From NCBI GenBank assembly GCA_964552755.1, contig CAZKHX010000002.1, positions 88,903 through 152,902 on the forward strand: 64,000 nucleotides of DNA, read 5' to 3'. Each line of letters begins with the position of its first letter. The stretch's first letter is position 1. The stretch comes from Candidatus Micrarchaeota archaeon (GTDB lineage Archaea; Micrarchaeota; Micrarchaeia; Anstonellales; Bilamarchaeaceae). The position numbers and the translations under genes are program-made. This document shows, in pieces, positions 27,317-64,000 of this stretch. The notes beneath the pieces were generated by a model. The model was not told the origin of the DNA, searched no databases, and saw nothing but the letters and a program-made list of their open reading frames with translations.

Positions 27317-27325
27317 GGAGAGCTG

Positions 27326-28894: not shown

Positions 28895-28907
28895 GAGATG
28901 GTGAAAA

Positions 28908-29798
28908 ATGGCCGAGAAAAAGAAAGTCTCTCCGGTTGCCGTTCCAGTAAGGTCAAGGAGGAAGGCGGCAAAGCCGGTCCGTTTCATTTCGGAAAAGCTG
29001 TTCCCCTACTTCCCTGACCTGAAGAAGAAGCTGGTTGTCGGGGACATCCAGCAGACTTCCGAGGACTTCCTCGACAAGGTCGTGGTCTCGTCCATCTTCA
29101 CCGCAATCGCGCTCACAATCGTGACGTTTGTGTTCTTCAATATGCTGTTCATCAACATGATGTTCCTCATCCCCCTGTTCTTCCTGTACCTGCTCCTTTC
29201 CTTCGGGTATTTCATGATGTACCCCTCGGTCAGGGTGCTGAAGCGCAGGAGGGACATCGACTACGAGCTCGTGTTCGCGGGCAGGCATCTCCTGATTGCG
29301 CTCAAGTCGGGCATGCCCCTCTTCGATGCCCTCGTGGGCGTGTCCCGCGGTTATGGGGCGGTTTCCGAGGAATTCAACAAGATAGTTGAGAAGGTCACGC
29401 TCGGCGTGCCGATGTCGCAGGCGATGCGCGAGGTAATCCAGACTTCGCCTTCCCCGGACTTCAACCGCGTAATCCTCCAGATTGCCAACTCGCTCTCCTC
29501 AGGAGCAGATGTCGCAGAGGCGCTCGAGGTGATACTCAACCAGATATTCCGCGAGCAGATCATCGCGCTGAAGGCATACGGCCAGAAGCTCAACCCGCTG
29601 GTGATGTTCTACATGATTTTTGGCATCATCTTCCCCTCGCTGGGGATGGCGTTCGCGATAATCCTGTTCTCGCTGCTCGGCGCAGGCAGGTTCGGCATGT
29701 CCGGCTCCCTGCTCGTGCTGGCGTTCATACTGATAGCAGTAGTGCAGTTCCTGTTCCTCTCCATGGTGGAGAGCTCCAGGCCGAGGTACGCGATATGA
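28908..29798 (+). CDS. Type IV pilus/Tad platform protein, single T2SSF domain (TadB/TadC-like)
   Basis: T2SSF-like helical domain (DYELVFAGRHLLIALKSGMPLFDALVGV...SSGADVAEALEVILNQI) flanked by TM helices. SD GGAGATGGTGA upstream. Confidence 0.7.
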   Translation: MAEKKKVSPVAVPVRSRRKAAKPVRFISEKLFPYFPDLKKKLVVGDIQQTSEDFLDKVVVSSIFTAIALTIVTFVFFNMLFINMMFLIPLFFLYLLLSFGYFMMYPSVRVLKRRRDIDYELVFAGRHLLIALKSGMPLFDALVGVSRGYGAVSEEFNKIVEKVTLGVPMSQAMREVIQTSPSPDFNRVILQIANSLSSGADVAEALEVILNQIFREQIIALKAYGQKLNPLVMFYMIFGIIFPSLGMAFAIILFSLLGAGRFGMSGSLLVLAFILIAVVQFLFLSMVESSRPRYAI

Positions 29799-29807
29799 GG
29801 GATTGAA

Positions 29808-37994: not shown

Positions 37995-38081
37995 GTGTTT
38001 TCACCTATAAATATTCTAATTATATGTGTTAAACCACACCTTTTTTAAATATTGCTGTGCACAATACATAGCGGGGTAAAC

Positions 38082-39422: not shown

Positions 39423-41929
39423 TGTTTATGAAAGGCAATTCAAGGACTATTGGGGTTGGGAAGGGGATGCAGGGAATCGGGGCTGCTGCGCCCGCGGAGC
39501 GGACATTCGGGAAGCGCATGCTTGAGGGGCCGCTTTCGCTTGCATGGAAACTGCCCGCAGCGGCACTTGGCGCATACCTGCTAATTGCGAGCCCGGCAGT
39601 GCGCAACGCCGCTGAGAATCTCTTCGGCCCAAGGCCGGCCGCTGCGGCGGAATCGGACTTCTACGGGTTCGACCTGAGTGAAACCCCTGGCCTAGGAATG
39701 GCATATGCGGAAGTGGGGGACAAGGAAAAGGCGAAGAAGATAGCGAACAAGCTGCTCAAGAAAGCGAAAGGCGATGATTTCATAGACGGTGCGGCGGAAA
39801 TCTTCATGAAGCTGGGCGACAGGCAGGGCATAAAGGCATGCATCTCCCTGCTGGAAAAGGATGCAGTTTATTCCGAAGCCGGCGAGCAGCATCTGGCGGC
39901 CCGGCTGTACAAGTCTCTGCACGGCCTTTCTTCAGGGGACGAAAGGGAAAAATACAGGGAAAAAGCGCTCGAGGCGCTGGATGGCGCTCCACAGGGCCCG
40001 GAGTCCGCCCTCCTCTACCTTGAGCTGGGCGAACGCGAAAGGGCAAAGGCGGCGATGGATGCCGCAGAGCAGGAGATAACCAAGCATTTCGACCTCAAGG
40101 GCAAGTACATAATGCCCGGAGAGCAGGAGTTCTTTGAAAACGCCCTACGGGCCTACCTGGAGCTTGGGGATGCGGAGAAAGTGGCTATGCTCGTCAAATA
40201 TGCAAAGGCAAAGGACCGCTTTACCCCCGGCGCATCAGTGGGCATTTTAACCTCCGTCGGCCTCTATGATGATGCACTATGGATTGTGGAAAATGCCGAG
40301 AAAAACGGAGAATCCCTGGGCGTCATGGGCGAAGAGCTAAAAGCCGTCCTTTACGCACGCAAGGCGGCCAGCATGGGCTGCTACGTAATCTGGGGCGAGG
40401 GCGGCTCGGTAAAGGTGTTCGTGCCGGAAGAGCTGGCAGAAAATGAAGAGCTCAGGCAGATGCTCAAGCTCGATTCTATAGAACGAAGCAGGGAGCTGGC
40501 AAAATGGCTTGAAAAGAGGGGCAGCCCCGGAACGGCCGAATCGAAAGACGCAAAGCAAGCCTTACAGTATATCGAAAAAGCAATGGAGATTGCACACCAG
40601 ATGGACTGGAAATACCCATCTGCGCTCGTATATTATGAGCTGGGCATGGAAAACGCAATGAATGAGGTCCTCGACGCCCTTGAAATCGGGGGGGAGTTCA
40701 ATGAAGCAGCGGACATAGCGCTGCTTCTCGGAGACAAGGAACGCGCCTCCAAGAACCTTGATAAGGCAATATGGCGCGAGAGCCTCCCGGGCTGGAGCCC
40801 GTATATTGGCATGGGCATGGACTATGCCACAAAAGTGGAATATGCGGAGGCATTTGCAAAAATGGGGAAGAAGGGCGAGAAATGGGCGAGGCAGATATCC
40901 GAAGGGCTTCTCTGGGACGATGAGCCGGAGACCTCCGCGCAGGCTCTCCTCGCCGCCAGGGACCAAAAAGGCATGGAATCCGTCCTCGAATGGAACAAAG
41001 CCGTGGACGCACTGGATTCGGCCACGGTCGCGGAGCTGGAATGCTCGCTCTGGGAACTTTCAGGTAATGAGGCGCTCCGCAACGATGCAATGCACTCCGC
41101 CGAATGGCAGGCGGAAGAATCAAGCCTGTACATAAACGCCCTCTTTATTGACATCTCGGACGGCAAAAAGCCTTCCGATGGGAGGATGCACGAGATATTC
41201 ACCCGGGAGTATTCGAAAGCAGTCCGTGCGGTCAACGTGCTCATTAAGCTGGGCGAGACAGAAAAGGCAAGGAAGGCGTACGAGAGCACTTTCTGGTGGT
41301 CAGAGGGTTTCAAAGAAAGTGAAGATGTGCACATTGAGGTTCCCGCGGAGCTTGCATATGAGCTGACCAAAGTGGAGCACCTCCTGGGCGGGGGGTTCGA
41401 AAAGGGTCCGCTTTACGATTTCCTGGTGGCCGGAAACTTCCATATGCAGTTCAAGGGGGCGGCGTTCGAAGGGGAATATGGGCTTGCGGAGCAATATTCG
41501 CAGTATCTCAGCCCAAAGGACCCCGAGGCGATGTTCTCCCTTGCAAATTTCTACATCCAGCGGCCCAAGGAAGGGGAAGCGGAAAAAGCCGCAGACCTTG
41601 AAAAGGCATACCAGGTTGCAAAGGGGATTGAGGACTACGACGACATGCTGGCAGGGATTGCCTATGCGCTGCTGGGGAAAACCGGTGATGCCATGAGGTG
41701 CATAAACTCCATGAAGGAAGATGGCGGGGCTTACGATTTTGCCTATGAAATCTCCCGGGTCTACCTTGCGCTTGGAATTAAAGACAAGGCCCGGGAGAGC
41801 CTTGTCAGGGGCTGGAGGTACGAAAACGGCTATTATGACAAGGATTCCGAAGATGGCTGCCTGGAAACAAAAGGCTGGGCCGGGCCGGTCACAGAGTGCC
41901 CCGGTGAAATGGGCGGCTATGCCGATTAG
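39422..41929 (+). CDS. Large alpha-helical repeat (TPR/HEAT-like) protein with N-terminal TM
   Basis: About 835 aa. It has an N-terminal hydrophobic segment (AAALGAYLLIASPAV) and recurrent LELGD/LELGE...A helix-pair repeats (YLELGERERAKAAMDAAEQ, YLELGDAEKVAMLVKYAK, YLALGIKDKARESL). Confidence 0.5.
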   Translation: MFMKGNSRTIGVGKGMQGIGAAAPAERTFGKRMLEGPLSLAWKLPAAALGAYLLIASPAVRNAAENLFGPRPAAAAESDFYGFDLSETPGLGMAYAEVGDKEKAKKIANKLLKKAKGDDFIDGAAEIFMKLGDRQGIKACISLLEKDAVYSEAGEQHLAARLYKSLHGLSSGDEREKYREKALEALDGAPQGPESALLYLELGERERAKAAMDAAEQEITKHFDLKGKYIMPGEQEFFENALRAYLELGDAEKVAMLVKYAKAKDRFTPGASVGILTSVGLYDDALWIVENAEKNGESLGVMGEELKAVLYARKAASMGCYVIWGEGGSVKVFVPEELAENEELRQMLKLDSIERSRELAKWLEKRGSPGTAESKDAKQALQYIEKAMEIAHQMDWKYPSALVYYELGMENAMNEVLDALEIGGEFNEAADIALLLGDKERASKNLDKAIWRESLPGWSPYIGMGMDYATKVEYAEAFAKMGKKGEKWARQISEGLLWDDEPETSAQALLAARDQKGMESVLEWNKAVDALDSATVAELECSLWELSGNEALRNDAMHSAEWQAEESSLYINALFIDISDGKKPSDGRMHEIFTREYSKAVRAVNVLIKLGETEKARKAYESTFWWSEGFKESEDVHIEVPAELAYELTKVEHLLGGGFEKGPLYDFLVAGNFHMQFKGAAFEGEYGLAEQYSQYLSPKDPEAMFSLANFYIQRPKEGEAEKAADLEKAYQVAKGIEDYDDMLAGIAYALLGKTGDAMRCINSMKEDGGAYDFAYEISRVYLALGIKDKARESLVRGWRYENGYYDKDSEDGCLETKGWAGPVTECPGEMGGYAD

Positions 41930-49092: not shown

Positions 49093-49134
49093 GAAAACCG
49101 CCTCCCGCGTGGTGTTCTTTTACGCCGGAATAGA

Positions 49135-49142
49135 TTTATATT
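49135..49142 (+). promoter_or_regulatory. TATA-box candidate for the six-gene membrane operon (leaderless start at 49166)
   Basis: TTTATATT lies 24-31 nt upstream of ATG 49166, in the 73-nt divergent gap between leuS and the first paralog. Confidence 0.4.
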
Positions 49143-49165
49143 CCTTAGTCGCCTTGTATAAAAGC

Positions 49166-50386
49166 ATGCTAGAGGGTGCAGCTCTGCCGCTACTGACAAC
49201 ACTGTCCTCAGTGCCAACCCCCACGCTTGCAATCGCTGCGCTCGCGCTCACTTTCGTGGGCATAATTGTCGTCTACATGCTTTCCCGGATTGTAAACTCC
49301 CCGCCGCTCGAGGCGTTCATGCGCGAGGAGTTCGCCCACTTCATCCTCACGGTCGCAATCTTCGCATTGTGGCTGGTTTTCTATTCCATATTCCTTGGCA
49401 TCGCCTCCGCCACGGTGTGCGGGGGCGCATCCTGCGACATAATGGCAGTCGCGCTCTATTCCCTCAGCATAATCAAGGCCAAGCTCTTCGGCATCTACAT
49501 AAACATCCTCGGCTACGAGGCAATAATCGGCTTCCTTTCCACAGTAGGCGTGAGCCTGCCTATCCCGATGGCGAACATGATTGCCTCAAACACGTGGATT
49601 GGCTTCTCCCCCCTCGGCGGCCTTGGCATACTCAGCAACGTCCTCATCACCCTCGTTGAATCCGTCGGTTTCCTCATCGGGCTGGTAATCGGCAGGATTT
49701 TCCTGCTCAATTTCTTCTCCGCGATAGTCCCATACGTGATGCTGCCCATGGGGCTGGCGATGCGCGCCCTGCCGTTCACGCGCAGGACCGGCTCATCCTT
49801 GATTGCCCTTTCCTTTGCCGCGTACTTCATATTCCCCCTCTCGGTAATCCTTTCCCACGGCCTGATATTCGGCTCCGCATACACCCCGGACCTTGACACC
49901 AGCACGTACATCAGCGACGTGCCCACGTTCGCGAAAATATGCGACGACCCGAATGGCGACTACGCGACAAGCACCTCAATCGAAGCCGGGGAAAAGCTTG
50001 CTGGGGAGAGCCAGGTCTCCTACGAAAGCTGGTGGTGGCAGAGCAAGGCGTTCGTGGGCGAGTCCGCGGATTTCGCGGGCGAGCAGCTCTGGGAGGAGGG
50101 CGGCTTCATAGACTACTTCAAGACGCACTACAACACCGGAGGCGCCTGGCTGGCGATGGCGGGCAAGTATGCGACGATGGGGCCCTCAGCCGCAATAAAC
50201 CCGGTGACGTTCGCGCATGCCGCATACTACTTCTCCATGGCGCAGATACCAAATATCATGCGCTTCGCGGTATTTGTAATGACGACTTTCGTGCTTGAGA
50301 TAATCATAACCGTGACCGGCTACCGTGCAATAGCCCATGCAATAGGCGGCGAGCTGGAGATACTGGGGCTTACGAAGGTGGTGTGA
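49166..50386 (+). CDS. Polytopic membrane protein, paralog A of an uncharacterised six-member family
   Basis: 406 aa from ATG 49166 (the track start 49076 would overlap leuS). Family motifs: PPLEAFMREEFAHF, LPMGLAMRALPFTRRTGSSLIALSFAAYFIFPL and C-terminal IGGELEILGLTKVV. Confidence 0.8.
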   Translation: MLEGAALPLLTTLSSVPTPTLAIAALALTFVGIIVVYMLSRIVNSPPLEAFMREEFAHFILTVAIFALWLVFYSIFLGIASATVCGGASCDIMAVALYSLSIIKAKLFGIYINILGYEAIIGFLSTVGVSLPIPMANMIASNTWIGFSPLGGLGILSNVLITLVESVGFLIGLVIGRIFLLNFFSAIVPYVMLPMGLAMRALPFTRRTGSSLIALSFAAYFIFPLSVILSHGLIFGSAYTPDLDTSTYISDVPTFAKICDDPNGDYATSTSIEAGEKLAGESQVSYESWWWQSKAFVGESADFAGEQLWEEGGFIDYFKTHYNTGGAWLAMAGKYATMGPSAAINPVTFAHAAYYFSMAQIPNIMRFAVFVMTTFVLEIIITVTGYRAIAHAIGGELEILGLTKVV

Positions 50387-51358
50387 ATGCTGGACTTCTT
50401 CGCTTTCGTGGCCTCCGGGACGGTGCTCGTGCTTTCCGCCTACCTCGCCCTCGTCTACATGGCATCCAGGGTATTCAACAAGCCGGAGCTCTCGGCATAC
50501 GCGCGCGTGGAGCTCTACCAGCTCTTCATCTCAGCAATCATATTCGTTGTCGCATTCGGCGCATTCGCCTTCTCGCAGGAGGCGGGCAAGGCCCTCGTGG
50601 GCGGCGAGCCCATAACGGTTTCCCTCAACTACCTCCAGAAAATAATACAGCGCGGCGTGCTGCCCGCCTATATGGACCTCATTTCCCTTGATGTGCGCCT
50701 CACGTACTTCTCTGCGCTGGAGGGAAGGCAGGGCCCGGGGGTATGGCATTACGCAGTAAAATCCATGCCCGGCCTTGAGCCGGTGATAAGCGTGGTGCGC
50801 ACCCTCACGTTTACGATGACCGCCATTTTCGGCACGCTCACCGCGCAGGTGCTGATATTCAACCTCATACCAGTCCTCACCGCGGGCTTCATGCTGCCTG
50901 CGGGGGTGCTGCTCAGGTTCTTCCCTCCCACGCGCGACGCGGGCATATACCTCATCGTGCTGGCAATCGCATTCCAGTCATTCTTCCCGTTAATCTATTC
51001 CCTCAACAGCATGGCGATGGACGACATATGGAAAGCACACGGCTGGGGCGACGAGTACCAGCCCTACACGTCCCTTCCCGCGAACCTCTTCGGCAAGGAA
51101 TTCTCCCTGCTCGACCCTGAGGCGATACCTGAATGGCTTCACATCCCGGATGCGGCGCAGGTCGCCCACCCAACTTTCGTGACAGAGGTATTGCTGTTCC
51201 TGCCGTTCCTGAGTTTCCTCAACTTCGCCGCGCTGGAGCCGTTCTTCGAGGGGATTGCGTCGCTCTCGCTGGTTGCTCTTTTCCAGCCCGCTCTGGCAAT
51301 GTCCGTAACAGTTGCATTTGTAAATGCAGTGACAAAGTTCATCACGGGGAGGGGCTGA
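50387..51358 (+). CDS. Polytopic membrane protein, paralog B
   Basis: 323 aa. Motifs PELSAYARVELYQLF and LPAGVLLRFFPPTRDAGIYLIVLAIAFQSFFPL; C-terminus AVTKFITGRG. The ATG directly abuts the stop of A (TGAATG). Confidence 0.8.
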   Translation: MLDFFAFVASGTVLVLSAYLALVYMASRVFNKPELSAYARVELYQLFISAIIFVVAFGAFAFSQEAGKALVGGEPITVSLNYLQKIIQRGVLPAYMDLISLDVRLTYFSALEGRQGPGVWHYAVKSMPGLEPVISVVRTLTFTMTAIFGTLTAQVLIFNLIPVLTAGFMLPAGVLLRFFPPTRDAGIYLIVLAIAFQSFFPLIYSLNSMAMDDIWKAHGWGDEYQPYTSLPANLFGKEFSLLDPEAIPEWLHIPDAAQVAHPTFVTEVLLFLPFLSFLNFAALEPFFEGIASLSLVALFQPALAMSVTVAFVNAVTKFITGRG

Positions 51359-51359
51359 C

Positions 51360-52625
51360 ATGGACCCGATAGGCACTCTGCTGGCGATATGGGTTCCGGT
51401 CATTGCGGCCGCAGTACTCGTATCCATAGCCCTTTCCGCCCTTATCTACGCAGTGGGTTCCTTCCTCAACAATGAGCAGGTGAAGGCGAACGCCCGCATG
51501 GGCGTGGTTGAGGCATTCTACTCCATCGTGATACTTGTGCTGGCAGGCATGCTCTTCTCCCTTGCAAACGGAGTTGCGGAAGGCGTGATAGATGCCTCGC
51601 ACCCCGCGCCCAATATCTGCTCCAGCCCGATTTTCTCCTCTCCCGCCTACCAGGACCTTCCGTGCCACCTTGCATTTGCCAAGAGCTTCCTGAATTCCCT
51701 TTTCGCGCAGGGCGCGGACCATGGCTTCGGCATGCTCCGCACGAACATATGGTTCTCCTTCATCTCGAGCATAGGCATAAGCATAGACTTCAAGGAGCAC
51801 AGCATGGGCTCGCCCAGCATGAGCCCGTTCAGCGGCATATTCGACATGCCCTCCTCAACATATTCCTATATGTTTGACTTCACCAGCAAGGCGCTCATGC
51901 TGACCAAGTTCCAGGAGATATTCATCTCGTTCATAGGCATTTCTCTGGGCCCCGTCCTTTTTGTCGTGGGCACCGTGCTGCGCGCGTTCAACCTCAGCCG
52001 CAGGCTCGGCGGCCTGCTGATGGCGATTGCCGTCTCCCTCTATTATGTCTACCCGATATTCATGGTGATGGGCGGCATAGTGTTCGACAGCATCGCCGCG
52101 GCCGCGCCGGACAACAAGGTGCTCTCTGCGATGTACGTGGACATGGGCCCCCTCTACCCGCCCGGCTACACTTCCGATGGGCAAATGATTGGCGAGGCCG
52201 GGTTCACGGACGAGCAGATAGCGAGCGGCGAGGCCCTGCAGGCCTACGGCGGGGCCCTCGAAAGCATCTGCCAGCCAACATCCGATGAGGATTTCGATGC
52301 CGCAACCACCGAAGTCAGCGCATGGACCGACAGCCTCGCGGAGATGGACTGGTGGTCCTTTGCCACCGGCAAGACGTTCTCCTCCATCCGGGGCTTCCTT
52401 TCCCCCAGCGGCCTCACGGCCGGCGGCTCCGAAGCAACCCGCGATTCCCTCCTGATACAGGGCATAACCGGCAAGCGCGGCATAATAGACAACACCTCAC
52501 GGCTCGTGTTCTTTTCATTTTTCTTTTCGTTCCTTTCGATAATGTCTACAATCGCGGCCATAAAGGGCATTTCGGGGATGCTGGGAGGGGACATAGAGAT
52601 AGCGGGGCTTACGCACCTGGTGTGA
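51360..52625 (+). CDS. Polytopic membrane protein, paralog C
   Basis: 421 aa. Motifs NEQVKANARMGVVEAF and GTVLRAFNLSRRLGGLLMAIAVSLYYVYPI; C-terminal LGGDIEIAGLTHLV. 1-nt gap after B. Confidence 0.8.
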   Translation: MDPIGTLLAIWVPVIAAAVLVSIALSALIYAVGSFLNNEQVKANARMGVVEAFYSIVILVLAGMLFSLANGVAEGVIDASHPAPNICSSPIFSSPAYQDLPCHLAFAKSFLNSLFAQGADHGFGMLRTNIWFSFISSIGISIDFKEHSMGSPSMSPFSGIFDMPSSTYSYMFDFTSKALMLTKFQEIFISFIGISLGPVLFVVGTVLRAFNLSRRLGGLLMAIAVSLYYVYPIFMVMGGIVFDSIAAAAPDNKVLSAMYVDMGPLYPPGYTSDGQMIGEAGFTDEQIASGEALQAYGGALESICQPTSDEDFDAATTEVSAWTDSLAEMDWWSFATGKTFSSIRGFLSPSGLTAGGSEATRDSLLIQGITGKRGIIDNTSRLVFFSFFFSFLSIMSTIAAIKGISGMLGGDIEIAGLTHLV

Positions 52626-52628
52626 AAA

Positions 52629-53897
52629 ATGAAGATGGAAATGGGGAAACCGGCGCTGCTCGTTGCGTTGTTCCTAATCTTGATGCTGCCCCTCCATGCA
52701 CAGGCCTCCACGCCGGGCATCCCCGCGCCCGCGGCCCCCGCAGAATCAATTGAAGCCCCGGATGAGCCGGTGGGTGCCGGCTTCACCACGCCCATTATTG
52801 GGGACACGATAGACCGCTCCCTGATTAGTTTCTCAAACGAAATGGACAGGCTGGGCACGTGCGGTGTCGCGGATGAGGACCTCAGCACATGGATATTCAC
52901 GCCAATGTTCATCGCCCTCATAGTGGTCATTTTTGCAATCACCATAATGTACATGCTCAGCACGCTTTTCACCGCGCCTGCGCTGGAGGCGTTCTCAAGG
53001 CAGGAAGCCTATGAGGTGATGCTGACCGTGGCAATCGCCCTCACATTCTTCTCGGTCGCCGGCCTCGTGGACAGCGTGGTGCTGGGCACGAGTGGCGAAA
53101 CCGGCCTCTTTGACCGTGGCATGGAATACTCAAAGGTAATCGCCCTCAAGCTCACGGGCGACATAGTCTACGTGGGCGTGATGAACACCGGCCTGTACAT
53201 GTACTCCTCCACCACCTTCCGGTTCGGGGGGCCGCTGCACCAGGCGGTGCGCTTCAACATCGGCCCCATACTCAAGCCGCTGGTGGACCTTTTCGGAGTT
53301 GCTGCCAACCTCCTGGCCCTGTCCCTTGGCACGTGGCTTGCGAACATAAACCTGCTCTGCTTCATAAAGCGGGTGGCGATGCCGATATTCCTGCCCCTTG
53401 GGCTGTTCATGCGTGCGGTGCCTCAATTGCGGGGCGGCGGCAACGCCCTGATAGCGTTCGCCTTTGCCTTCTTCATCATCTATCCGCTCATGCTCAGCAT
53501 AAACTACGACATATACAATTTCAAGTATGGCGCGTACACCCACGAAAGCTTCACCAGTGACCATGACAACGACCCCGCCACCCCCGAAATAACGCGCTAT
53601 TACAGCAGCCCGCTCAGGAACCTCATGAACAATTTCATGCTTGACAGCGGCCTCATCGGAATGGGCATAATGCTGGCAGGAATAGTGCTTTTGGGCGGCG
53701 GCGCGCTGGGCACCCTTTGGTTCTTCTTCATCACGTTTGGCTCGATTGCGATGATATACGACCTGGTATTCACCGTATTCATACTCAGCATATTCCTCCC
53801 CCTGCTCAACATATTCGTGACGCTCACTTTCGCGAGGGAAATCGCGAAATTCCTGGGCACTGAAATAAACATAACTGCATTCACCAAACTGATATGA
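52629..53897 (+). CDS. Polytopic membrane protein, paralog D (with cleavable-looking signal peptide and N-terminal extension)
   Basis: 422 aa. Signal peptide MKMEMGKPALLVALFLILMLPLHAQAS; motifs APALEAFSRQEAYEVM and LPLGLFMRAVPQLRGGGNALIAFAFAFFIIYPL; C-terminal LGTEINITAFTKLI. Confidence 0.8.
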   Translation: MKMEMGKPALLVALFLILMLPLHAQASTPGIPAPAAPAESIEAPDEPVGAGFTTPIIGDTIDRSLISFSNEMDRLGTCGVADEDLSTWIFTPMFIALIVVIFAITIMYMLSTLFTAPALEAFSRQEAYEVMLTVAIALTFFSVAGLVDSVVLGTSGETGLFDRGMEYSKVIALKLTGDIVYVGVMNTGLYMYSSTTFRFGGPLHQAVRFNIGPILKPLVDLFGVAANLLALSLGTWLANINLLCFIKRVAMPIFLPLGLFMRAVPQLRGGGNALIAFAFAFFIIYPLMLSINYDIYNFKYGAYTHESFTSDHDNDPATPEITRYYSSPLRNLMNNFMLDSGLIGMGIMLAGIVLLGGGALGTLWFFFITFGSIAMIYDLVFTVFILSIFLPLLNIFVTLTFAREIAKFLGTEINITAFTKLI

Positions 53898-55003
53898 GGC
53901 GAAGCATGGCAAGCGCAATGTCGGAGGCACTCTGCCCGGACCTGGCCGCTGGGTTCTTCATCCCCACATGGCAGGCGCTGGTAGGCGCGGCCCTTCTTGC
54001 CTCCATCGGCCTCATCGCATTCCTCTACATGGTGAACCGCTTCTTCCAGAACGAGCAGGGCGTTGCCTGGGCAAAGGTGGAGCTCTTCGAGGCCTTCATA
54101 ACCGTTGCGATAATGATAGGGGTGATTGCGCTCGCCAACGCCGCATGCGGAGTGAATGTGGGCATCCTGTTCCCCAGCTCGGATATTGCGGACATGAACA
54201 TATATGACGCCTCTACCTACTACCTCGAGACCTTCGGGGACACCATGACCACGATAATGAGCACTGTCTACTATTTCTACGTTTTCTACATAGACATCCC
54301 AAGCACGATGACCCTCACTGCATGGCCCATGGGCCTCGGCACCCGCATCCAGCCCCTCGCGGGCGCGGGCGCAACGGTAAAGCCGCCCCTCATCAACGCA
54401 ATGAACATGATGACGATGGCCATAATAATCACAAAGGCCCAGCAGTTCCTCGTGGACTTCTTCACATTTGCATTCATGAAATACTACCTGCCGCTCGGGG
54501 TCATAATGCGCGCATTCGCGCCCACCCGGCGCATAGGCGGGACACTGATAGCGATAGCGCTGGGCTTCATGTTCGTTTACCCGTTCCTCATTATCCTCGA
54601 CGGCGAGATGATGATATGGCCGTTCAACTCATTTTGGGAGTTCGTCGCAAGGGCATGGACGCTGAGCGGCGAAGAGGGCGGGATAGGGGGTTATACATTC
54701 GGGGGGGACTTTGGAGTCCCTTTCAAGGATTTCTGGGACTCGGCCAGGAACTACATCAGCAGCGGCTGGGGCCTGCTCAACCCGGCCAGCGGATTCGACG
54801 TGCTGAGCAATTTCATGTCCGGCCTCATAGGGGCCGCCGCATTCGTTGTGCTGTTTTTCATCGCCAACACGATTGCCTTCGCATTCCTGATGGGACTGTT
54901 CTTCCCGGCATTCAACACGCTTATATTGGTAACAACGATAAGGTACCTGAGCAAGACGCTCGGTGAGGAGGTCGACGTGACGAACCTTACGAGGATGGTA
55001 TAA
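53894..55003 (+). CDS. Polytopic membrane protein, paralog E
   Basis: 369 aa. Motifs NEQGVAWAKVELFEAF and LPLGVIMRAFAPTRRIGGTLIAIALGFMFVYPF; C-terminal LGEEVDVTNLTRMV. ATGA overlap with D. Confidence 0.8.
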   Translation: MRRSMASAMSEALCPDLAAGFFIPTWQALVGAALLASIGLIAFLYMVNRFFQNEQGVAWAKVELFEAFITVAIMIGVIALANAACGVNVGILFPSSDIADMNIYDASTYYLETFGDTMTTIMSTVYYFYVFYIDIPSTMTLTAWPMGLGTRIQPLAGAGATVKPPLINAMNMMTMAIIITKAQQFLVDFFTFAFMKYYLPLGVIMRAFAPTRRIGGTLIAIALGFMFVYPFLIILDGEMMIWPFNSFWEFVARAWTLSGEEGGIGGYTFGGDFGVPFKDFWDSARNYISSGWGLLNPASGFDVLSNFMSGLIGAAAFVVLFFIANTIAFAFLMGLFFPAFNTLILVTTIRYLSKTLGEEVDVTNLTRMV

Positions 55004-55977
55004 TGGCATGGGAGACGGCTGCTTTCGCCGCGGTGCTGCTTTCCTTCGGGGTAGCCGCGCTGCTGATTGCGCTTTCCCGCGCCTTCCAGTACAAGGAGCT
55101 CGAGCAGTGGGCAAAGGCGGAAATGATTTTCGCCCTTTCCACCGTATTCATAGCCGCGCTGCTGGTCGCGCTGTTCACGCAGGGCGAGCAGATCGCGCTC
55201 GAGGTCGCGAAGCACTTCATGATGCTTGGCTATGCGCAGCAGGGCATTTACGTCAGCGAAGCCGCCCTCGGAGGCGGAGAGGCGACGCTCCTCTCCTTCG
55301 CGAAATTCTACATGTCGCAGGTTTTCGACTGCATGGTCACCTACTATTCATTCATCTACTTCATCAACATCCCGATTGCCCATGGCGCAAGCATGTCGGC
55401 TGACGCATGGATGGCGGACGCGATTTCCGGATGGTTCCTGAACAGCTTCGTGCAGACGTTCATGAACTTCTCCAACCAGATTGCCTTCACCCTCTTCATC
55501 TACTACGTATTCGTGCACATGCTCAACTTCGTGGAAGCCACCGCGCTGCAGGTATTCCTCCCCGCGGGGATACTGCTCCGCGCCTTCCCGCCCACGCGGG
55601 GCGTCGGCGCCTACGTGCTTGCATTCGTAATCGGGTTCTATTTCGTATTCCCCCTCGCCTACATAATGCTCGCTGCGATGTATCCCGTTTCCCACGTTGC
55701 CTGCGACATATTCTCCGACGTTTCCCCCACGCCCGCGATGTGCGGGCTGGAAAATCCGGGCAAGCCCTTCGAAACGCTCCTCTGGGCCGATGCGAACACC
55801 CAGGCGCTGCAGGCCTCCCTCTCCAGCATCCAGCAGGCAATCAGCGGCTTCTGCGTGGGCATGTGCTGCCTGCCGTTCCTTGCGATGGTCGTCACCATGA
55901 GCGCTATCCTTTCCGGCACCAACCTTCTCGGGGCGAATCTCCCGGAAATCGGCCGCGGCTTCGTCAAACTGATATAA
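55003..55977 (+). CDS. Polytopic membrane protein, paralog F
   Basis: 324 aa. Motifs KELEQWAKAEMIFAL and LPAGILLRAFPPTRGVGAYVLAFVIGFYFVFPL; C-terminal LGANLPEIGRGFVKLI. TAATG overlap with E. Confidence 0.8.
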   Translation: MAWETAAFAAVLLSFGVAALLIALSRAFQYKELEQWAKAEMIFALSTVFIAALLVALFTQGEQIALEVAKHFMMLGYAQQGIYVSEAALGGGEATLLSFAKFYMSQVFDCMVTYYSFIYFINIPIAHGASMSADAWMADAISGWFLNSFVQTFMNFSNQIAFTLFIYYVFVHMLNFVEATALQVFLPAGILLRAFPPTRGVGAYVLAFVIGFYFVFPLAYIMLAAMYPVSHVACDIFSDVSPTPAMCGLENPGKPFETLLWADANTQALQASLSSIQQAISGFCVGMCCLPFLAMVVTMSAILSGTNLLGANLPEIGRGFVKLI

Positions 55978-56010
55978 AGTTTTAAAAGCTCCACAGAAGA
56001 GTGTGTTCCC

Positions 56011-56559
56011 ATGAAAAAATTCATCCTCGACACAAGCCTATTCGTGAACCCGGCCGCGCGCACCGCCTTTGGCAAGACCCCGCAGGCCTCTGTGGACGGC
56101 TTCGTGAAGAAAGTGAAGAAGGCGGACGCGGAATTCTACATGCCGCCCTCGATATTCAAGGAGCTCTCCTACTTTGCCGAGGACCTCAGCAGGCTCGAAA
56201 CCATAGTGAAGAAGCGCGCACCGAACATCTATTCCATTTACCTGCCTGCTGCAGTATTCCACGAGATAATTGACGATGTGCGCAGGAGGATGAACAAGGG
56301 CCTCAGGCTCGCGGAGGAATTTGCGCGCGACAACCGGCCGGACAACGACGAGAAGCTCCGCAAGCTGCGCGAGAAGTACCGCGAGGCGGTGCGCACCGGC
56401 ATCGTCGACTCGCAGGAGGACTTCGAGATAATACTCCTCGCCTACCAGCTCGAGGCGACCATAATCACCCTGGACGAGGGCATCATCCGCCTCGCGAACC
56501 GCATCGGTGTGCAGTACCTTGAGGCGAACAAGTTCCCCGCGCTTCTCAAGACGCTCTAA
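56011..56559 (+). CDS. RNA ligase partner protein (MJ_0950 family, PIN-like)
   Basis: MKKFILDTSLFVNP N-terminus (PIN acidic residue), about 180 aa, adjacent to an Rnl3-type ligase. Confidence 0.7.
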   Translation: MKKFILDTSLFVNPAARTAFGKTPQASVDGFVKKVKKADAEFYMPPSIFKELSYFAEDLSRLETIVKKRAPNIYSIYLPAAVFHEIIDDVRRRMNKGLRLAEEFARDNRPDNDEKLRKLREKYREAVRTGIVDSQEDFEIILLAYQLEATIITLDEGIIRLANRIGVQYLEANKFPALLKTL

Positions 56560-57614
56560 TCAGTCTGCGCATAGCCCTCAAGCGCCCGCCGCGCGCGGCG
56601 GCTCCCTTCCTTGTATACTTTATAGAATACTATAGCAATGTGCTTCCCGCTTTTCTTGGTGCTCTCCACCTCTATCCTCACTTCCTTCCCCATCTGCCGC
56701 TTTATCTTCTCCCAGGTATCTTCGCTGCTCACGCGCACCCTGAACCGTTCGCGCACCTCCCCTCCGCCGGATGCAAGCATTTCCTCCAGCCCGGAGTGCA
56801 GCGCTTCCCCAAGCCTCTGCGCATACTTCCTCTTGTCCAGCCCGAGCTCGTTCACGGAAATCGCGGAGCGGAAAACCCTCTGCTTCATGAAGCCCGCGGG
56901 CATGTCAAAGACCTGCGCGGAATTCTGCGCCAAATCATGGATGTCTGAAGAAGGCACAACGTATTTCATCAATTCGCGCTTCCCAATCCCGCGCAGGACC
57001 ATCCCCTCTTTCCCCTGCGCATCCAGTCTCCGCGCAAGCTTCCTCAGCCCTTCGGCATCGCCTTTCCCGAACTTCCCGAGGAAAGGCACCATCTCCAGCC
57101 CGGCCTTCCCCCCCTCTTTCCTCCGGTCAAGCGCCTTCAGGTACCTCTTCCTGCCGTTCCCTATGTCGAACACGAGATATTTCACATCGTATTCATCGGT
57201 GGGCGGAGTATGCGGCGTATTCCCAACCATCTCGCCGTACAATACGGCATGGGGGTGCGCCTCAAGGAACCCGAGCACCTTTTCATCCATGTTAAGCTTC
57301 TCTGAGCAGAAATGGTCCACGAGCCCGCTGCGGGAGAAGCACATCACCTTTCCGCCAAAAAGCGCGGCCCGCACATTGAATCCGTCTATTTTCTCTTCTG
57401 CAATAAATTCAGGGGAATTCATGTTCCTTCCAATGCCCGCCCCCAGCGAGAAAATCCTCCTTATTTTCGGGAAGCCGTAAATCACCCTTTTGCCCACTAC
57501 TACCGTCCCGCGCGGGACCGGGCCAACTGCCTGGGAGAAGCGGTAAACGCCGTCACTTAGCGTGATGCGCTTTTTTCTTAGCCCCTCCCTTATGTGCTGC
57601 CTCAGGCTTTTCAC
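56556..57614 (-). CDS. ATP-dependent RNA ligase, Pab1020/Rnl3-like
   Basis: Nucleotidyltransferase motif I EEKIDGFNVR (KxDG), LYGEMVG and EGMVL. The N-terminal region resembles Pab1020-type ligases. Confidence 0.75.
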   Translation of the reverse strand: MKSLRQHIREGLRKKRITLSDGVYRFSQAVGPVPRGTVVVGKRVIYGFPKIRRIFSLGAGIGRNMNSPEFIAEEKIDGFNVRAALFGGKVMCFSRSGLVDHFCSEKLNMDEKVLGFLEAHPHAVLYGEMVGNTPHTPPTDEYDVKYLVFDIGNGRKRYLKALDRRKEGGKAGLEMVPFLGKFGKGDAEGLRKLARRLDAQGKEGMVLRGIGKRELMKYVVPSSDIHDLAQNSAQVFDMPAGFMKQRVFRSAISVNELGLDKRKYAQRLGEALHSGLEEMLASGGGEVRERFRVRVSSEDTWEKIKRQMGKEVRIEVESTKKSGKHIAIVFYKVYKEGSRRARRALEGYAQTD

Positions 57615-59449: not shown

Positions 59450-59541
59450 TGCTTCCCATTTGCCCAGGTAAATTTATAAAATGAGTTCGCCCTCGGCCCC
59501 AATCGAAACCTATAAATACCTTCATGTTCATAATTAAACAC

Positions 59542-61098
59542 ATGGAAACACATTCACGCGCAATTTCCCACAGCGCGCATTCTGCAGAAAGGAAGAGGGC
59601 CGATAGGAACAAGGGCTTTGTGCTCAAGGCATGGAAGGCCGCAAAGGATGCAATCGAAAAGGCAATCGAAGCGACCACTCCCACTGGCCTCAAGAAGGCG
59701 GCAGTTGCCGCAGGCATGGTGGTTGCGCTCGGAGGAGGGATGGCCGCGTGCAGTTCCGAGAGCCCCAACCATGACACCAATACCGATTCAGACACCGATG
59801 CGGAAGTCACCGACGGCGAAACCGACGGAGACGCGCTCCCAGACATAATTGAAGACCCTGTTGATGATGAGATTGAAGATGGGGATGCGGACGAAGACGG
59901 AGAGGTAATCCCGCCGGTCTGCCCGGAGCAGGAAGGCCCGCTCGAGCTTGTCTTCAACACGGACAACGCGGGCACCGCCCGCACAGTAGTTACCTTTGAA
60001 GGCCCCGATGGCGAGGAAGTCACCGCGGACGCCGAGCTTACCGTCAGCATGGAAGGCGACATTTCCGGCCTCACCTACATCGGCACCTGCGACGACGGAG
60101 AAACTCCCGTCTACCTTGCGTCCCCTGACGATTCCCTTGAATTTGAGCCCCAGATTGTTTCCGAAGTGGGCGACCTTGGAGATGCCGGCTGGGACGCAAC
60201 AATCCCCGAAGGCGAATGCGAGCCGCTCGAGTCAGATGCCACTACCCTCAGGACAAGCGGGAGCACCACGAAGCCGATTGCGAAGAACGCAACCTCGGTG
60301 GACGGGGCAACCCGCGCGCTTTTCGAGCTCATGCCCGACCTCAGTACCTACGGCCTCTACGTAGACGGGGTTGAGACATCGGGCGCATTCTCCCTTGCAA
60401 GCGCCGGCTTCTCCGGCCACGCAGTGGTTGCGCAGATTGGCGAGAGCGAATGGACGCTAGGCGTGACTACCTTCTTCAGCGGCGGCAGCAACGAATACGC
60501 TTACACCGGCACGATGCCTGCGGCCAGCTCTAAGACGTTCGTAATATACTCTATGCTGCCCGAAGCAGTAATTGTATATCCCACCACCATATATTCTCCT
60601 GCACTGGAATATCACTTCTTCAGGTGCGGCCCCGGCACCCCGGGAGGCAGCCTCGACACATTCGAGATGGTGTTCGAAGTACTGCCCACCTCATGTATGA
60701 TTGAAGATGGATGTGGCTGTGCCGGGGACGGCGTAGTTCCGGTCGTAGACAACGCCTCTTTGGACATACGCCCGCCCCACCTCGCAGGCTTCTACAGCAT
60801 CTCTGGAATCACAATTGTTCCGGTGAGTTCAATGGGCGCAAGGGACCCCACTACTGGTGAAATGGTGCCTGGCCAGATAATCCTGTCCATACTGCGCACC
60901 AATGTTGACCCCGGCTACGATGAAGGGGAAGAGACAGATATAGATGCCACAGTCAATTACCACACTGTGGGGCAATATTCTTCTTACATCGGCCCTTCAG
61001 GGATATTATACGGCACCGTCAGGGATGCGGAGACCCGCGCCCCGGCATCTCCGAGCTATGAGAGTGACGCGCCCGCAGGCTGCGTGCTCGACATGTGA
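59542..61098 (+). CDS. Secreted/lipoprotein-like protein with D/E-rich linker, unknown family
   Basis: Start set at ATG 59542, 24-32 nt downstream of CTATAAATA (59510-59518). TM/lipobox-like AAGMVVALGGGMAAC, then DTNTDSDTDAEVTDGETDGD..., then a Cys-containing beta-rich domain. Confidence 0.55.
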   Translation: METHSRAISHSAHSAERKRADRNKGFVLKAWKAAKDAIEKAIEATTPTGLKKAAVAAGMVVALGGGMAACSSESPNHDTNTDSDTDAEVTDGETDGDALPDIIEDPVDDEIEDGDADEDGEVIPPVCPEQEGPLELVFNTDNAGTARTVVTFEGPDGEEVTADAELTVSMEGDISGLTYIGTCDDGETPVYLASPDDSLEFEPQIVSEVGDLGDAGWDATIPEGECEPLESDATTLRTSGSTTKPIAKNATSVDGATRALFELMPDLSTYGLYVDGVETSGAFSLASAGFSGHAVVAQIGESEWTLGVTTFFSGGSNEYAYTGTMPAASSKTFVIYSMLPEAVIVYPTTIYSPALEYHFFRCGPGTPGGSLDTFEMVFEVLPTSCMIEDGCGCAGDGVVPVVDNASLDIRPPHLAGFYSISGITIVPVSSMGARDPTTGEMVPGQIILSILRTNVDPGYDEGEETDIDATVNYHTVGQYSSYIGPSGILYGTVRDAETRAPASPSYESDAPAGCVLDM

Positions 61099-61160
61099 GC
61101 CGGAATCCCGCGCCGGGGGCCTCTCGGAACCTTTTTAATGCTTATTTTAGAATAAGCGCC

Positions 61161-64000
61161 ATGAAGTTTAGGGTATTGCTCCCTGCATTGGTATTGCTGT
61201 TCCTGCTCCCGGCGGCAAGCGCCGCGTGCCAGACGCTCCTTTCGAATACCAACACCCTGCTTGCCGCAGACGAATACGGCAATAAGTCCGACGAAGCCTG
61301 CTTCACAATAAAGGACGTAAATGATGTGGTGCTGGACTGCAACAGCTTCAGCATAATCGGCTGGGGCATGGGCAAGGCAGTCCTCATTGAAAACTCCACC
61401 AACGTCCTAATACGGAACTGCAACGTACAGAATTACTCTTATGGCGCGCATATATTAGATGGGGCAGGCAACGCCACCGTAACTGGCACCAACTTCTCCA
61501 ACAATACCTTTGCCGCCTATATTGAAGACAACTGCTGGGGCAACTACATCCTCAACGCGAATTCATACAACGCCACCAACCAGGCCTTCGTAATCGAGTC
61601 CAACTCTTCCTACAACGTGATTGACAACTGCGTTGCGGAGCTCAACGGCAACGATGGCTTTGTTATCGGAGTAGACACCCCTGTTTCCTCCTACAATAAC
61701 ATAACCAACGCGTTTGCGAACAACAGCGGAAGGAGGAACTTCTACCTCAATTATTACCATTCACAGACCCTGCTGCAGAATACCTATGGTGAAAACGCAG
61801 GGGAATACGGATATTACATTCGCTTGGGGGACAATGCAACATTCGTGAACGGCACCTCAGTTGACAGCGGCTATGCGGAGTACTACCTTCGTCAAACCGC
61901 GGACAATGTGCTACTTGAGCAGTACGCATACGACAGCAACGTGAGCTTCTGGCTGGACAGGTCAGATTATAACCTCGTCGGCAATTCCTTCTCGCATGCA
62001 AGCATGGAGCACGGCTTCTACATAGACGATGCGGACAACAATACCATAGAGAACTGCACCGCCCGCCACCAGGTGCCCGGCTTCGGCCAGTTCAGCGGCT
62101 TCTTCGTGGACGACAGCTGGGACGACACGCTCTTCAACTGCACCGCGTTCAACTACACGCGCGCGGGCATCACCCTCTACGCTTCCGCAGTGGGCCAGAC
62201 AAGGGCGATCAACGTTTCTGATTCCGTCGCGTACAACAACACCTACGGGTTCGAGACCCTGCTGGTGCGCACCGCCGTCATCCAGTACAGCGATTCATAC
62301 TCCAATACGCTCGACGGGTTCTATTTCAACACCAGCGGGAACACGGTGTGGGGCATCGAATGCGACGCCTACGACAATTCCCGCGACGGCTACAGGCTCC
62401 ACTCCTCTTCGATAATCAACCTGACCGGCTGCGAGGCGTACAACAACAGCGGGGACGGCGTAGGATTCCTCAGCGGCGGAGTCAACCTCTTCGCTTACGG
62501 CGAGTCCTATGGGAACCAGGGCAATGGGGTGCATTCCTCCGGCCCCTCCACCGGGAACTTCGTCACCTTCAGCGAAATCTACGACAACATCCAGCACGGA
62601 ATTTACGTTGAGGACGGCTGCAACCTGCACGCCATGCGCTTCGACAACATTTCAGGCAACGGCGGCTGGGGCTTCTACTCCAAGAATGCCAACATACACA
62701 TATTCATAAACTCCAGCATCTTCGACAACATCGGGGGCGGCTTCCTGTTCGCAAGCTCGGACTCCGGAGCATACGGCGACCTTGAGTTCTACAACAACAG
62801 CGAAGGGGGCAACTACAGCATCTGGATGAGCTCCGGCTCCAACAGCAACGTTTTCGTAGACGTCCTCATAGTGAACGACAGCAACTACATCTACCAGCAG
62901 CCCACCGCGCCGAGCGAAAACAACTTCACCGGCCTCACAATCGGCTACAACTTCAGCATCGGCCTCGTGAAATGGGGCTTCATGAACATCACCGAGCTCG
63001 CCCTGAATTCCTCGAACTTCATCCCCTACTGGGACTTCGTTTCATTGGATGACGCGCAGAACCCGCAGGCGAACAGGTCCGCGAACATCACGATATGGAG
63101 CCCATACTGCTCCCCCACCCCCAGCGTGTGGTACGCCACGGGCTTCCCGCAGAGCAGGGCCGCGATATTCGCAGCAAACATGCTCTACCCCGGCGCAAAC
63201 GTCTATTCCTGCTCCAACAACATAGTCACATTCGACGTGCTGTCCTTCTCGGGCTACGCCGTGAACGTGACCTTCGATGAATGCTTCTATGCGAATGACG
63301 ACGACACGCTCTACATGCTCACGGGCAACCTGGAGGGCAACAAGTCCGACCAGATATGCATCACCATAAATGCCTCCAACATAATGATAGACTGCTCCGG
63401 CTTTAACGTCACGGGCAACCACTCCGGCATCACGGGAGGGATTTCAACTTACGTCACCAGCGGCGTCGAGAACGTGACTGTGGCGAACTGCTTCGTGAGC
63501 AACTACACAGTTGACGCATTTTTTGACCTTGCAACCAACGTGACAATCTACAACAACACGATGTACAATTCCACCAACGCCATTAGGTTCGTCAGCGGCA
63601 TCAGGCACAGCCGCATAGTGGACAACGTCGTGCACGACACCAGCGACTGGGGCATCCGCATAGACCAGGCCAATTACACCAACGTCACGGGCAATTTCGC
63701 GTACAACAACACGGGCACGTGCGCAATCGGCACTTCTGCCAGCGCCCTCTCCTCCAACTACATGCTCTTCGAGGACAACATTGTGCTGGACAACACCCTT
63801 GGCATGTGCGCCCTCATAGCCCACAACAGCACGTTCTACAATAACACCGTGCGCAACAACACCGACGGCTTCGTCGCCTTCGCCGCATGGGACAACGACT
63901 TTGAGTATAACCGCATATACGACAACACCGCAAGCGGACTGATTGTTGCCGTTTTCTCCCAGTACAACGAATTCACGGACAACGAGATTTACAATAACTT
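61161..64000 (+). CDS. Very large secreted parallel beta-helix (PbH1/NosD-like repeat) surface protein, 5' part (runs off window end)
   Basis: Manual translation from ATG 61161 is open to 64000 (over 946 codons). Signal peptide MKFRVLLPALVLLFLLPAASA. It has many repeats of about 22 aa of the type N-x-I-x-x-N-x-x-x-x-N-x-x-G-I and about 50 N-x-S/T sequons. It is absent from the ORF track because there is no stop in the window. Confidence 0.75.
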   Translation, partial: MKFRVLLPALVLLFLLPAASAACQTLLSNTNTLLAADEYGNKSDEACFTIKDVNDVVLDCNSFSIIGWGMGKAVLIENSTNVLIRNCNVQNYSYGAHILDGAGNATVTGTNFSNNTFAAYIEDNCWGNYILNANSYNATNQAFVIESNSSYNVIDNCVAELNGNDGFVIGVDTPVSSYNNITNAFANNSGRRNFYLNYYHSQTLLQNTYGENAGEYGYYIRLGDNATFVNGTSVDSGYAEYYLRQTADNVLLEQYAYDSNVSFWLDRSDYNLVGNSFSHASMEHGFYIDDADNNTIENCTARHQVPGFGQFSGFFVDDSWDDTLFNCTAFNYTRAGITLYASAVGQTRAINVSDSVAYNNTYGFETLLVRTAVIQYSDSYSNTLDGFYFNTSGNTVWGIECDAYDNSRDGYRLHSSSIINLTGCEAYNNSGDGVGFLSGGVNLFAYGESYGNQGNGVHSSGPSTGNFVTFSEIYDNIQHGIYVEDGCNLHAMRFDNISGNGGWGFYSKNANIHIFINSSIFDNIGGGFLFASSDSGAYGDLEFYNNSEGGNYSIWMSSGSNSNVFVDVLIVNDSNYIYQQPTAPSENNFTGLTIGYNFSIGLVKWGFMNITELALNSSNFIPYWDFVSLDDAQNPQANRSANITIWSPYCSPTPSVWYATGFPQSRAAIFAANMLYPGANVYSCSNNIVTFDVLSFSGYAVNVTFDECFYANDDDTLYMLTGNLEGNKSDQICITINASNIMIDCSGFNVTGNHSGITGGISTYVTSGVENVTVANCFVSNYTVDAFFDLATNVTIYNNTMYNSTNAIRFVSGIRHSRIVDNVVHDTSDWGIRIDQANYTNVTGNFAYNNTGTCAIGTSASALSSNYMLFEDNIVLDNTLGMCALIAHNSTFYNNTVRNNTDGFVAFAAWDNDFEYNRIYDNTASGLIVAVFSQYNEFTDNEIYNN

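Follow-up and report, generated by a model that had tools for sequence, protein, structure and literature searches.

How DPANN archaea obtain material from their hosts is a standing question. These organisms, Micrarchaeota included, have tiny genomes from which most biosynthesis is absent, generally including lipid synthesis, and few recognizable transporters or interface structures are known. Here we ask what is made by six adjacent genes in a 64,000-nucleotide stretch of DNA (the window) from a member of Micrarchaeota, a lineage whose current NCBI phylum name is Microcaldota, in the DPANN kingdom Nanobdellati. The six same-direction open reading frames (ORFs), A to F, encode proteins of 406, 323, 421, 422, 369, and 324 amino acids (aa) and fill positions 49166-55977 of the plus strand. 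We find that this hexad represents a new protein family, so far seen in one phylum only, composed of six ancient paralogs in fixed order and number, and with no known relative. We consider it somewhat better than an even bet (a probability of about 0.55) that the array is an operon for the six distinct subunits of a single integral-membrane complex that is specific to Micrarchaeota/Microcaldota and built from this previously undescribed family. Full-text searching of the literature on membrane operons of Micrarchaeota and other DPANN archaea found no account of the family or the operon.

Six ancient paralogs in a tightly packed array

The genes follow one another with spacings of 0 nt (A/B), +1 nt (B/C), +3 nt (C/D), -4 nt (D/E, overlapping in ATGA), and -1 nt (E/F, overlapping in TAATG). 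Upstream, a TATA-like box sits inside the 73-bp divergent spacer that separates A from the gene for LeuRS, and it is likely the promoter of a nearly leaderless transcript of the hexad. An alternative in-frame ATG of A at 49076 would run into the LeuRS start, and independent gene calls on identical metagenomic contigs place the start of A at 49166, giving the 406-aa protein. A run of T residues (55980-55983) lies just past the stop codon of F, and the guanine-plus-cytosine (GC) content is flat over the array region.

Pairwise identity among the six window proteins is 19-27%. When profiles of the six orthologous groups are compared with each other, hhalign returns probabilities of 98.2-99.8% with E-values from 3e-14 to 2e-28, and the closest pairs are A-C, D-E, C-E, A-D, and B-F, a pattern that gives no backing to an origin by duplication of a three-gene block (3 + 3). 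At the DNA level, the only likeness among A-F is a single 41-bp match of 78% between B and F; the copies must therefore be old, being neither a recent duplication nor an assembly artifact. No further copy of the family was found elsewhere in the 64-kb window. The initial annotation had reported six ORFs of these lengths with these junctions, preceded by the TATA-like box, and had quoted a set of shared motifs; the ORF coordinates agree, the box lies where it was placed, and each of the quoted motifs was found in the sequences. Its description of an old, strongly diverged paralog array is likewise borne out by the profile homology and the lone 41-bp DNA match.

In a metagenome assembly of the same population (JGI 3300017971, locus L001), the array is otherwise 100% identical to that of the window, with a 1-nt deletion at about position 14066 (about 53231 in window D), some 603 nt into the gene, that splits D into ORFs of 239 and 172 aa. 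D is intact in three other assemblies of that population, and the deletion probably reflects a rare variant or a mistake in assembly or sequencing.

Gene number and order are fixed, and junctions short, in the recovered Micrarchaeota loci

Related loci were retrieved through motifs of ortholog A, their ORFs were called, and these were then searched with a hidden Markov model of the six window paralogs. Scanning a single genome for each GTDB species yielded 59 loci; all those that carry a lineage name are from Micrarchaeota, and five are titled only "archaeon." Every locus with sufficient sequence contains exactly six tandem family genes, the lone apparent exception (L063) being one in which the ORFs are split. 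In all 46 complete arrays from the GTDB species genomes, positions 1 to 6 best match window A-B-C-D-E-F in that order, with ratios of best to second-best bit score of 2.4-4.0 at merely 25-55% identity. Roughly 90% of the 228 junctions, computed with the ATG nearest the upstream stop codon, are 10 nt or shorter, and individual spacings recur, with a B/C junction of +1 shared by 32 of 46 arrays and an E/F junction of -1 by 18 of 45. These conserved short junctions indicate co-transcription and coupled translation. The fixed order that had been proposed from the window is matched by collinear arrays in every complete case. Tight packing combined with the absence of gain, loss, or permutation throughout the phylum is the signature expected of an obligate 1:1:1:1:1:1 hetero-complex rather than of independent transporters, and from this comparative genomics we infer a hetero-oligomer.

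A deeper-branching locus, L068 (JGI 3300035660, contig Ga0373629_0000124), also carries six tandem genes, here encoding 404, 294, 1281, 749, 353, and 337 aa. Five positions are in order; the assignment of the fourth is ambiguous, its best window match being E and not D. In the third gene (best match C), the loop between transmembrane (TM) helices TM4 and TM5 is extended by about 960 aa of Cys-rich insert, and the fourth encodes a signal peptide followed by an N-terminal domain of 430 aa. The neighborhood of L068, with TBP and L21e, differs from that of the other arrays. Size variation is also evident among the orthologs of B, which range from 296 to 638 aa owing to variation in an ectodomain loop.

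Downstream of the L068 array (18183-23846 of that locus) are genes for two very large secreted Cys-rich proteins without a Pfam domain, of 1069 aa and at least 790 aa within the locus (1121 aa by gene call). The first begins on the same strand only 4 nt beyond the last gene of the hexad, and the two products may be lineage-specific surface partners.

The family is large. A HMMER search over 1.84 billion cluster representatives recovers 2,933 members with a cutoff of E ≤ 1e-3, of which 2,094 also pass E ≤ 1e-10. Taxon names, judged on the best 150 of the 2,933, all point to Micrarchaeota. Word-indexed homology searches match unannotated proteins exclusively, named as Candidatus Micrarchaeota, Micrarchaeia, Bilamarchaeaceae, or "ainarchaeum," with a single exception, a metagenome-assembled genome record labeled "[bacterium]." A word-indexed search for relatives outside the phylum, made with an alignment of the core motif, gave no match, and no relative of the family is encoded on the viral contigs of IMG/VR. 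The suggestion that small-genome archaeal lineages were the place to look for the family has accordingly led to Micrarchaeota.

Conserved residues and tails point to a cytoplasmic face

Across 282 sequences, six positions are nearly or fully invariant (numbering of A): Glu55 (98%), Gly196 (95%), Arg200 (97%), Arg206 (99%), Gly209 (100%), and Pro224 (100%). Glu55 marks the start of the second helix and falls within what the initial annotation called an amphipathic linker. The glycines and arginines make up a G-x3-R-x5-R-x2-G loop (the R-loop) between TM3 and TM4, and Pro224 lies in TM4. The features that define the hexad family are all present, namely about five TM helices, the Glu at the start of TM2, the R-loop, the Pro of TM4, and six collinear paralogs. 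Within orthologous groups, the best-conserved blocks are the R-loop and the extreme C-terminus (62-95% identity); for the TM4-TM5 loop, which precedes the last helix, the corresponding figure is 4-25%.

The C-terminal tail shared by A, C, D, E, and F reads G-(G/x)-E-x-(E/D)-(I/V)-x-x-(L/F)-(T/V)-(K/R)-Φ-(I/V)-COOH, and the tail of F is the most conserved segment of any paralog, with a mean identity of 95% to the window sequence. B lacks it. In 47 of 47 genomes, the B ortholog ends some 11 residues sooner (…TKFIVxKV or …TKFITGKG), without the acidic G-G-E-x-E…T-K-V-V extension. The tail had at first been ascribed to all six proteins, a claim that stands for five of them; the VTKFI of B, which had been read as its version of the motif, is placed by the alignment in the last helix instead. 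The consistent lack of a tail in B looks like a position-specific role inside an assembly.

Charge and cysteine content divide the extramembrane segments into two sets. The short loops 1-2 and 3-4 and the C-terminal tail carry a net positive charge and hardly any Cys, while the N-terminus and loops 2-3 and 4-5 are net negative and contain the cysteines. From these properties we infer a topology with the N-terminus outside, about five TM helices, and the C-terminus inside. The outside location of the N-terminus is supported by the fourth gene of L068, since its 430-aa N-terminal domain follows a signal peptide. Window D, too, begins with a signal-peptide-like segment (residues 1-27), and an ectodomain of about 55 aa precedes its TM1. 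With this topology, the conserved face of the proteins would be cytoplasmic, and their ectodomains would be hypervariable and Cys-bearing.

Predicted structures suggest an outer helical stalk

We modeled paralogs A and E with AlphaFold2, each from an alignment of its orthologs, and read the geometry from secondary-structure strings. Model A has a predicted local distance difference test (pLDDT) score of 71.6, exceeding 90 in the TM core, and a predicted template modeling (pTM) score of 0.68; the values for model E are 81.9 and 0.74. Both follow the same all-helical plan, in which two ordinary TM helices and a 36-residue helix are followed by helices of 49-52, 31-45, and 48-59 residues (52, 45, and 59 in E), so that the last three far exceed the length needed to cross a bilayer. 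For the subunits in general, the final three TM helices plus one additional helix are predicted to be this long. Taken with the hydropathy profiles, these long helices suggest a rather hydrophobic helical stalk on the outer side of the membrane.

No characterized family accounts for the hexad

The six window proteins have no significant match in Pfam or NCBIfam at E ≤ 1, and none in PHROGs or PADLOC, where the best E-values are 0.035-0.075. Pfam searches of 32 diverse family members (E ≤ 0.1) and of six unusually long ones returned nothing recurring or significant. Sequence searches of the PDB with the six-paralog profile, with a 79-column core profile, and with a 1284-aa member found nothing, the hepatitis B virus capsid matches at E of about 1 being chance. 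Foldseek comparison of models A and E with the PDB gave best E-values of 0.25-0.39 and TM-scores of 0.22 or less, and comparison of model A with BFVD gave a best E-value of 0.47. As a positive control, the T2SSF proteins encoded in the same window were readily detected at 1e-16 to 1e-21, and the T2SSF and T2SSE set at 1e-16 to 1e-40. The initial annotation had been unable to assign the proteins to a characterized family, and these uniformly empty searches concur.

Several specific identities were considered and rejected. For TrbL/VirB6 (PF04610), Pfam is silent and the six-paralog profile aligns to VirB6 of Agrobacterium fabrum C58 with an hhalign probability of 0.08%; a type IV secretion context is also missing, as VirB4, VirB8-11, and the VirD4 coupling protein do not occur beside the arrays of the window or of 47 loci. 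The likeness to VirB6 had been offered as an analogy without homology, which is how it remains. None of the six proteins matches T2SSF, the ArlJ/PilC platform family (PF00482), and the T2SSE ATPase of the window is encoded 20 kb upstream. MCE proteins (PF02470) give no Pfam match, and models A and E are polytopic and all-helical. GT-C glycosyltransferases and O-antigen-type polymerases give no Pfam or NCBIfam match, and the invariant residues of the hexad all lie in positive, cytoplasmic loops, none outside. MotA/ExbB/ZorA stators are represented only by PADLOC matches of ZorA to D (E-values of 0.046-0.075) over about 50-60 residues, with Pfam and Foldseek silent. Finally, no member carries an ABC_membrane or ABC_tran domain, and the ABC exporters retrieved by Foldseek score E ≥ 0.39 with TM-scores of 0.16 or less.

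Genomic neighborhood and other genes of the window

The hexad lies among housekeeping genes. Its neighbors in the window are LeuRS, Trm5/Tyw2, AdoMet decarboxylase, signal-peptide peptidase, MCM, form III RuBisCO, and CDP-archaeol synthase, and arrays in other loci are similarly placed beside LeuRS or AspRS, MCM, Trm5, and CarS. Across 47 loci, the only conserved neighbors are a PIN_5 "RNA ligase partner," an RNA ligase, CarS, and SurE or aminoacyl-tRNA synthetases, and neither an ATPase nor any other non-housekeeping partner was found to be kept beside the arrays. This setting, with its uniform GC content and the lack of viral relatives, fits a core cellular structure and not a mobile or defense element; an origin from a mobile element was rejected on the same three grounds.

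Table 1 Features of the hexad and other genes of the window (aa, amino acids; R-loop, the G-x3-R-x5-R-x2-G loop).
Feature	Position	Strand	Details
TATA-like box	49135-49142	+	TTTATATT; read off the sequence; 24-31 nt 5′ of the A start codon (49166)
Paralog A, 406 aa	49166-50386	+	R-loop 49751-49792; C-terminal tail IGGELEILGLTKVV 50342-50383
Paralog B, 323 aa	50387-51358	+	R-loop 50903-50944; ends …VTKFITGRG; acidic C-terminal tail absent
Paralog C, 421 aa	51360-52625	+	R-loop 51969-52013; tail LGGDIEIAGLTHLV 52581-52622
Paralog D, 422 aa	52629-53897	+	R-loop 53400-53441; tail LGTEINITAFTKLI 53853-53894
Paralog E, 369 aa	53894-55003	+	4-nt overlap with D (ATGA); R-loop LPLGVIMRAFAPTRRIGG 54497-54541; tail LGEEVDVTNLTRMV 54959-55000
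Paralog F, 324 aa	55003-55977	+	1-nt overlap with E (TAATG); R-loop 55567-55608; tail ANLPEIGRGFVKLI 55933-55974
PIN_5 gene	56011-56559	+	176.9 bits against TIGR03875 "RNA ligase partner" (cutoff 95.3)
Pab1020-type RNA ligase	56556-57614	-	PF09414 + PF18330; adjoins the PIN_5 gene
HerA-like DUF87 ATPase	652-2199	+	window start
MacB/FtsX-type permease paralogs	11631-15537	-	tandem, 407 and 401 aa; beside a CARDB-domain protein (494 aa)
Type IV pilus/archaellum-like cluster	25673-30872	+	T2SSE ATPase 547 aa; T2SSF 296 and 354 aa
RuBisCO large subunit	35405-36814	+	469 aa; probably form III
Two genes upstream of MCM	38052-41929	+	456 aa, no Pfam/NCBIfam match; 837 aa, faint TPR signals
Two genes at the window end	59524-64000	+	unannotated 524 aa; >968 aa, overlapping by 4 nt and running past the window end

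The PIN_5 gene that follows the hexad was rejected as a hexad component, as it belongs to TIGR03875 and pairs with the adjoining RNA ligase. PIN_5 follows the hexad in 37-39 of 47 loci and the ligase in 28 of 47, a synteny at the level of the phylum. RNA-free RNase P proteins (HARP) also belong to the PIN_5 family. Neither the HerA-like ATPase nor the type IV pilus cluster was accepted as a hexad partner, as these genes lie 20-47 kb away and show no synteny with arrays elsewhere. Unannotated proteins flank the pilus-like cluster; they are 522 and 604 aa long, and the longer one gives weak coiled-coil, SMC-like matches.

The remaining genes in Table 1 are observations in their own right. The MacB/FtsX pair is another small tandem set of membrane paralogs in the same genome. 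In DPANN archaea, form III RuBisCO is reported to act in a nucleotide-salvage (AMP) pathway, and the window RuBisCO fits this. The 456-aa and 837-aa genes are conserved in the same place on identical contigs. The gene pair at the window end begins 3.5 kb downstream of the hexad, and its second product, which carries repeated right-handed β-helix/NosD domains, is likely a large surface protein.

A proposed hetero-oligomeric assembly and its alternatives

The ring, the stoichiometry, and the function that we outline for the hexad are hypotheses. Most likely, one copy of each subunit would form a closed or spiral six-membered ring in which neighbors follow the gene order. On the cytoplasmic face, the Glu that opens TM2 and the invariant Arg pair of the R-loop would keep such a ring together, with further cohesion from the acidic tails (…G-G-E-x-E-I-x-G-L-T-K-V-V-COOH) of five subunits, and the tail-less B would mark a unique position. 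Above the membrane, the long hydrophobic helix extensions may build a stalk or tunnel capped by lineage-specific ectodomains, for which the outside loops and the N-terminus appear able to bear domains of several hundred residues. In the weakest step of the proposal, the complex would serve as a core envelope conduit or platform for exchange with, or attachment to, the surroundings or a host, possibly handling lipids or hydrophobic cargo. Because no ATPase adjoins the array, transport would be either passive or powered by a partner encoded elsewhere.

Known six-membered assemblies offer points of comparison. In mycobacteria, Mce1A-F are six tandem paralogs whose MCE domains are about 17% identical and which assemble as a heterohexamer, forming a hydrophobic needle for lipid import (PMC9882608). 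The Mce1-4 operons share with the hexad the arrangement of six tandem, same-direction, very divergent paralogs in fixed order, and on the Mce side this encodes a 1:1:1:1:1:1 envelope-spanning complex in a nutrient-scavenging organism, the long helices of the six subunits forming a hydrophobic tunnel. Each Mce protein, however, has a single TM helix and a β-barrel MCE domain, whereas the hexad proteins are polytopic and all-helical, and Mce operons include YrbE permeases and require the MceG ATPase, whereas no array of Micrarchaeota is flanked by ABC components. The parallel is thus one of genetic logic only, with no shared sequence, fold (Foldseek), or MCE domain (Pfam).

The tandem VirB6 (RvhB6) arrays of Rickettsiales likewise consist of polytopic paralogs with variable extramembrane extensions in a reduced-genome, host-dependent organism; they differ in lacking homology to the hexad, whose copy number is fixed at six with orthology by position. 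TTYH proteins (Tweety homologs) recur among the top Foldseek matches of both models, at non-significant levels (E 0.8-3.4, TM-scores 0.14-0.20). TTYH1-3 have five TM helices, an N-out/C-in topology, and TM helices that extend into an extracellular helical bundle. Unlike the hexad, they are eukaryotic and form homodimers or homotetramers, and no motif is held in common. The LRRC8/VRAC channels, which are hetero-hexameric, and the pseudo-hexameric FliP5-FliR1 gate place paralogous subunits at distinct positions of a six-membered assembly. These differ from the hexad in drawing on between one and five gene products, whose ratios vary, and have no sequence or fold similarity to it.

Among the alternatives, a surface scaffold ranks first. 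The six proteins might carry out no transport and instead mainly anchor and present lineage-specific ectodomains along with secreted proteins, holding an S-layer or adhesins in place or providing a platform for host recognition. Such a role would suit the hypervariability and large size range of the outside loops, seen in B and in the Cys-rich third and fourth proteins of L068, as well as the two secreted Cys-rich proteins that trail the L068 array. It would also suit the confinement of conserved residues to the cytoplasmic side, with none lining a putative outside-facing pathway. We nevertheless judge it unlikely, given that the window lineage and many others keep six genes despite short ectodomains, that secreted partners of the L068 type are not conserved beside the arrays of other loci, and that a plain anchor has no obvious need of six distinct polytopic subunits whose tails are conserved and whose cytoplasmic Arg/Glu face is invariant.

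The genes could alternatively encode six separate paralogous channels or transporters, every one of them working as a homo-oligomer on a different substrate, with nothing but operon inheritance keeping the genes together. Tandem batteries of paralogous transporters are common, the paralogs are as divergent as their 19-27% identities imply, and models A and E are self-contained helical bundles. Copy-number variation would then be expected, yet none of the 46 arrays shows gain, loss, or reshuffling, and L068, for all the ambiguity of its fourth position, has six tandem genes too. Junctions of 0-10 nt imply equal dosage, conservation resides in short cytoplasmic elements and the C-terminal tail rather than in membrane-embedded polar substrate sites, and one paralog, B, is consistently tail-less. 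With all these observations opposed to it, independent function is decidedly improbable.

Least probable is that the hexad is a very divergent branch of a known family (TrbL/VirB6, T2SSF/ArlJ, MotA/ExbB stators, GT-C, or ABC permeases): it can draw on the early VirB6 analogy, the faint ZorA matches, a JGI record that titles one A ortholog "ABC-type multidrug transport system fused ATPase/permease," and the long-helix membrane proteins (PCAT1, TTYH2, and YbtPQ) that head the Foldseek lists, yet every one of these signals is insignificant, the control T2SSF proteins were detected with ease, and VirB4, VirD4, or an ABC ATPase adjoins no array.

Several points also weigh against the single hetero-oligomeric complex that we favor. 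Its apparent universality means every recovered locus, because the loci were fetched through the motifs of A, a route whose reach ends at genomes lacking A or the whole array. The choice of the ATG nearest the upstream stop biases the junction lengths toward small values. D and E contain hydrophobic stretches of 55-75 residues that may conceal additional TM segments, the long outside loops are modeled with low confidence, and the part of each 45-59-residue helix that lies within the bilayer is uncertain. No energizing or partner protein is found beside the arrays, and the idea of transport is drawn from analogy alone.

A bolder version of the hetero-oligomeric complex would make it a heterohexameric conduit, specific to the phylum, at the interface with the host, an all-helical counterpart of the Mce needle in logic and not in ancestry. 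Its tunnel, formed by the long hydrophobic helix extensions, would take up host lipids or other large or hydrophobic molecules for Micrarchaeota auxotrophic for lipids and metabolites, and the hypervariable ectodomains would determine host specificity. Argued from the Mce analogy, this extension is speculative and on balance quite unlikely. In cryo-electron tomography of a Microcaldota co-culture, intercellular nanotubes were assigned to the host rather than to the symbiont (PMC11329633).

Significance for Micrarchaeota

At minimum, the hexad adds a new protein family, unannotated in current databases, that comprises about 2,900 clusters (50% identity). For the question of how DPANN archaea acquire material from their hosts, it provides a tractable candidate for a lineage-defining envelope machine, with the strengths that it is encoded on the core chromosome in every recovered locus, comprises six fixed paralogs with a new predicted fold, and bears hypervariable domains that are probably surface-exposed. 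If the proposed assembly is correct, it would be one of few prokaryotic membrane complexes made of six fully differentiated paralogs, and a model for how a homo-oligomer may evolve into an obligate hetero-oligomer.

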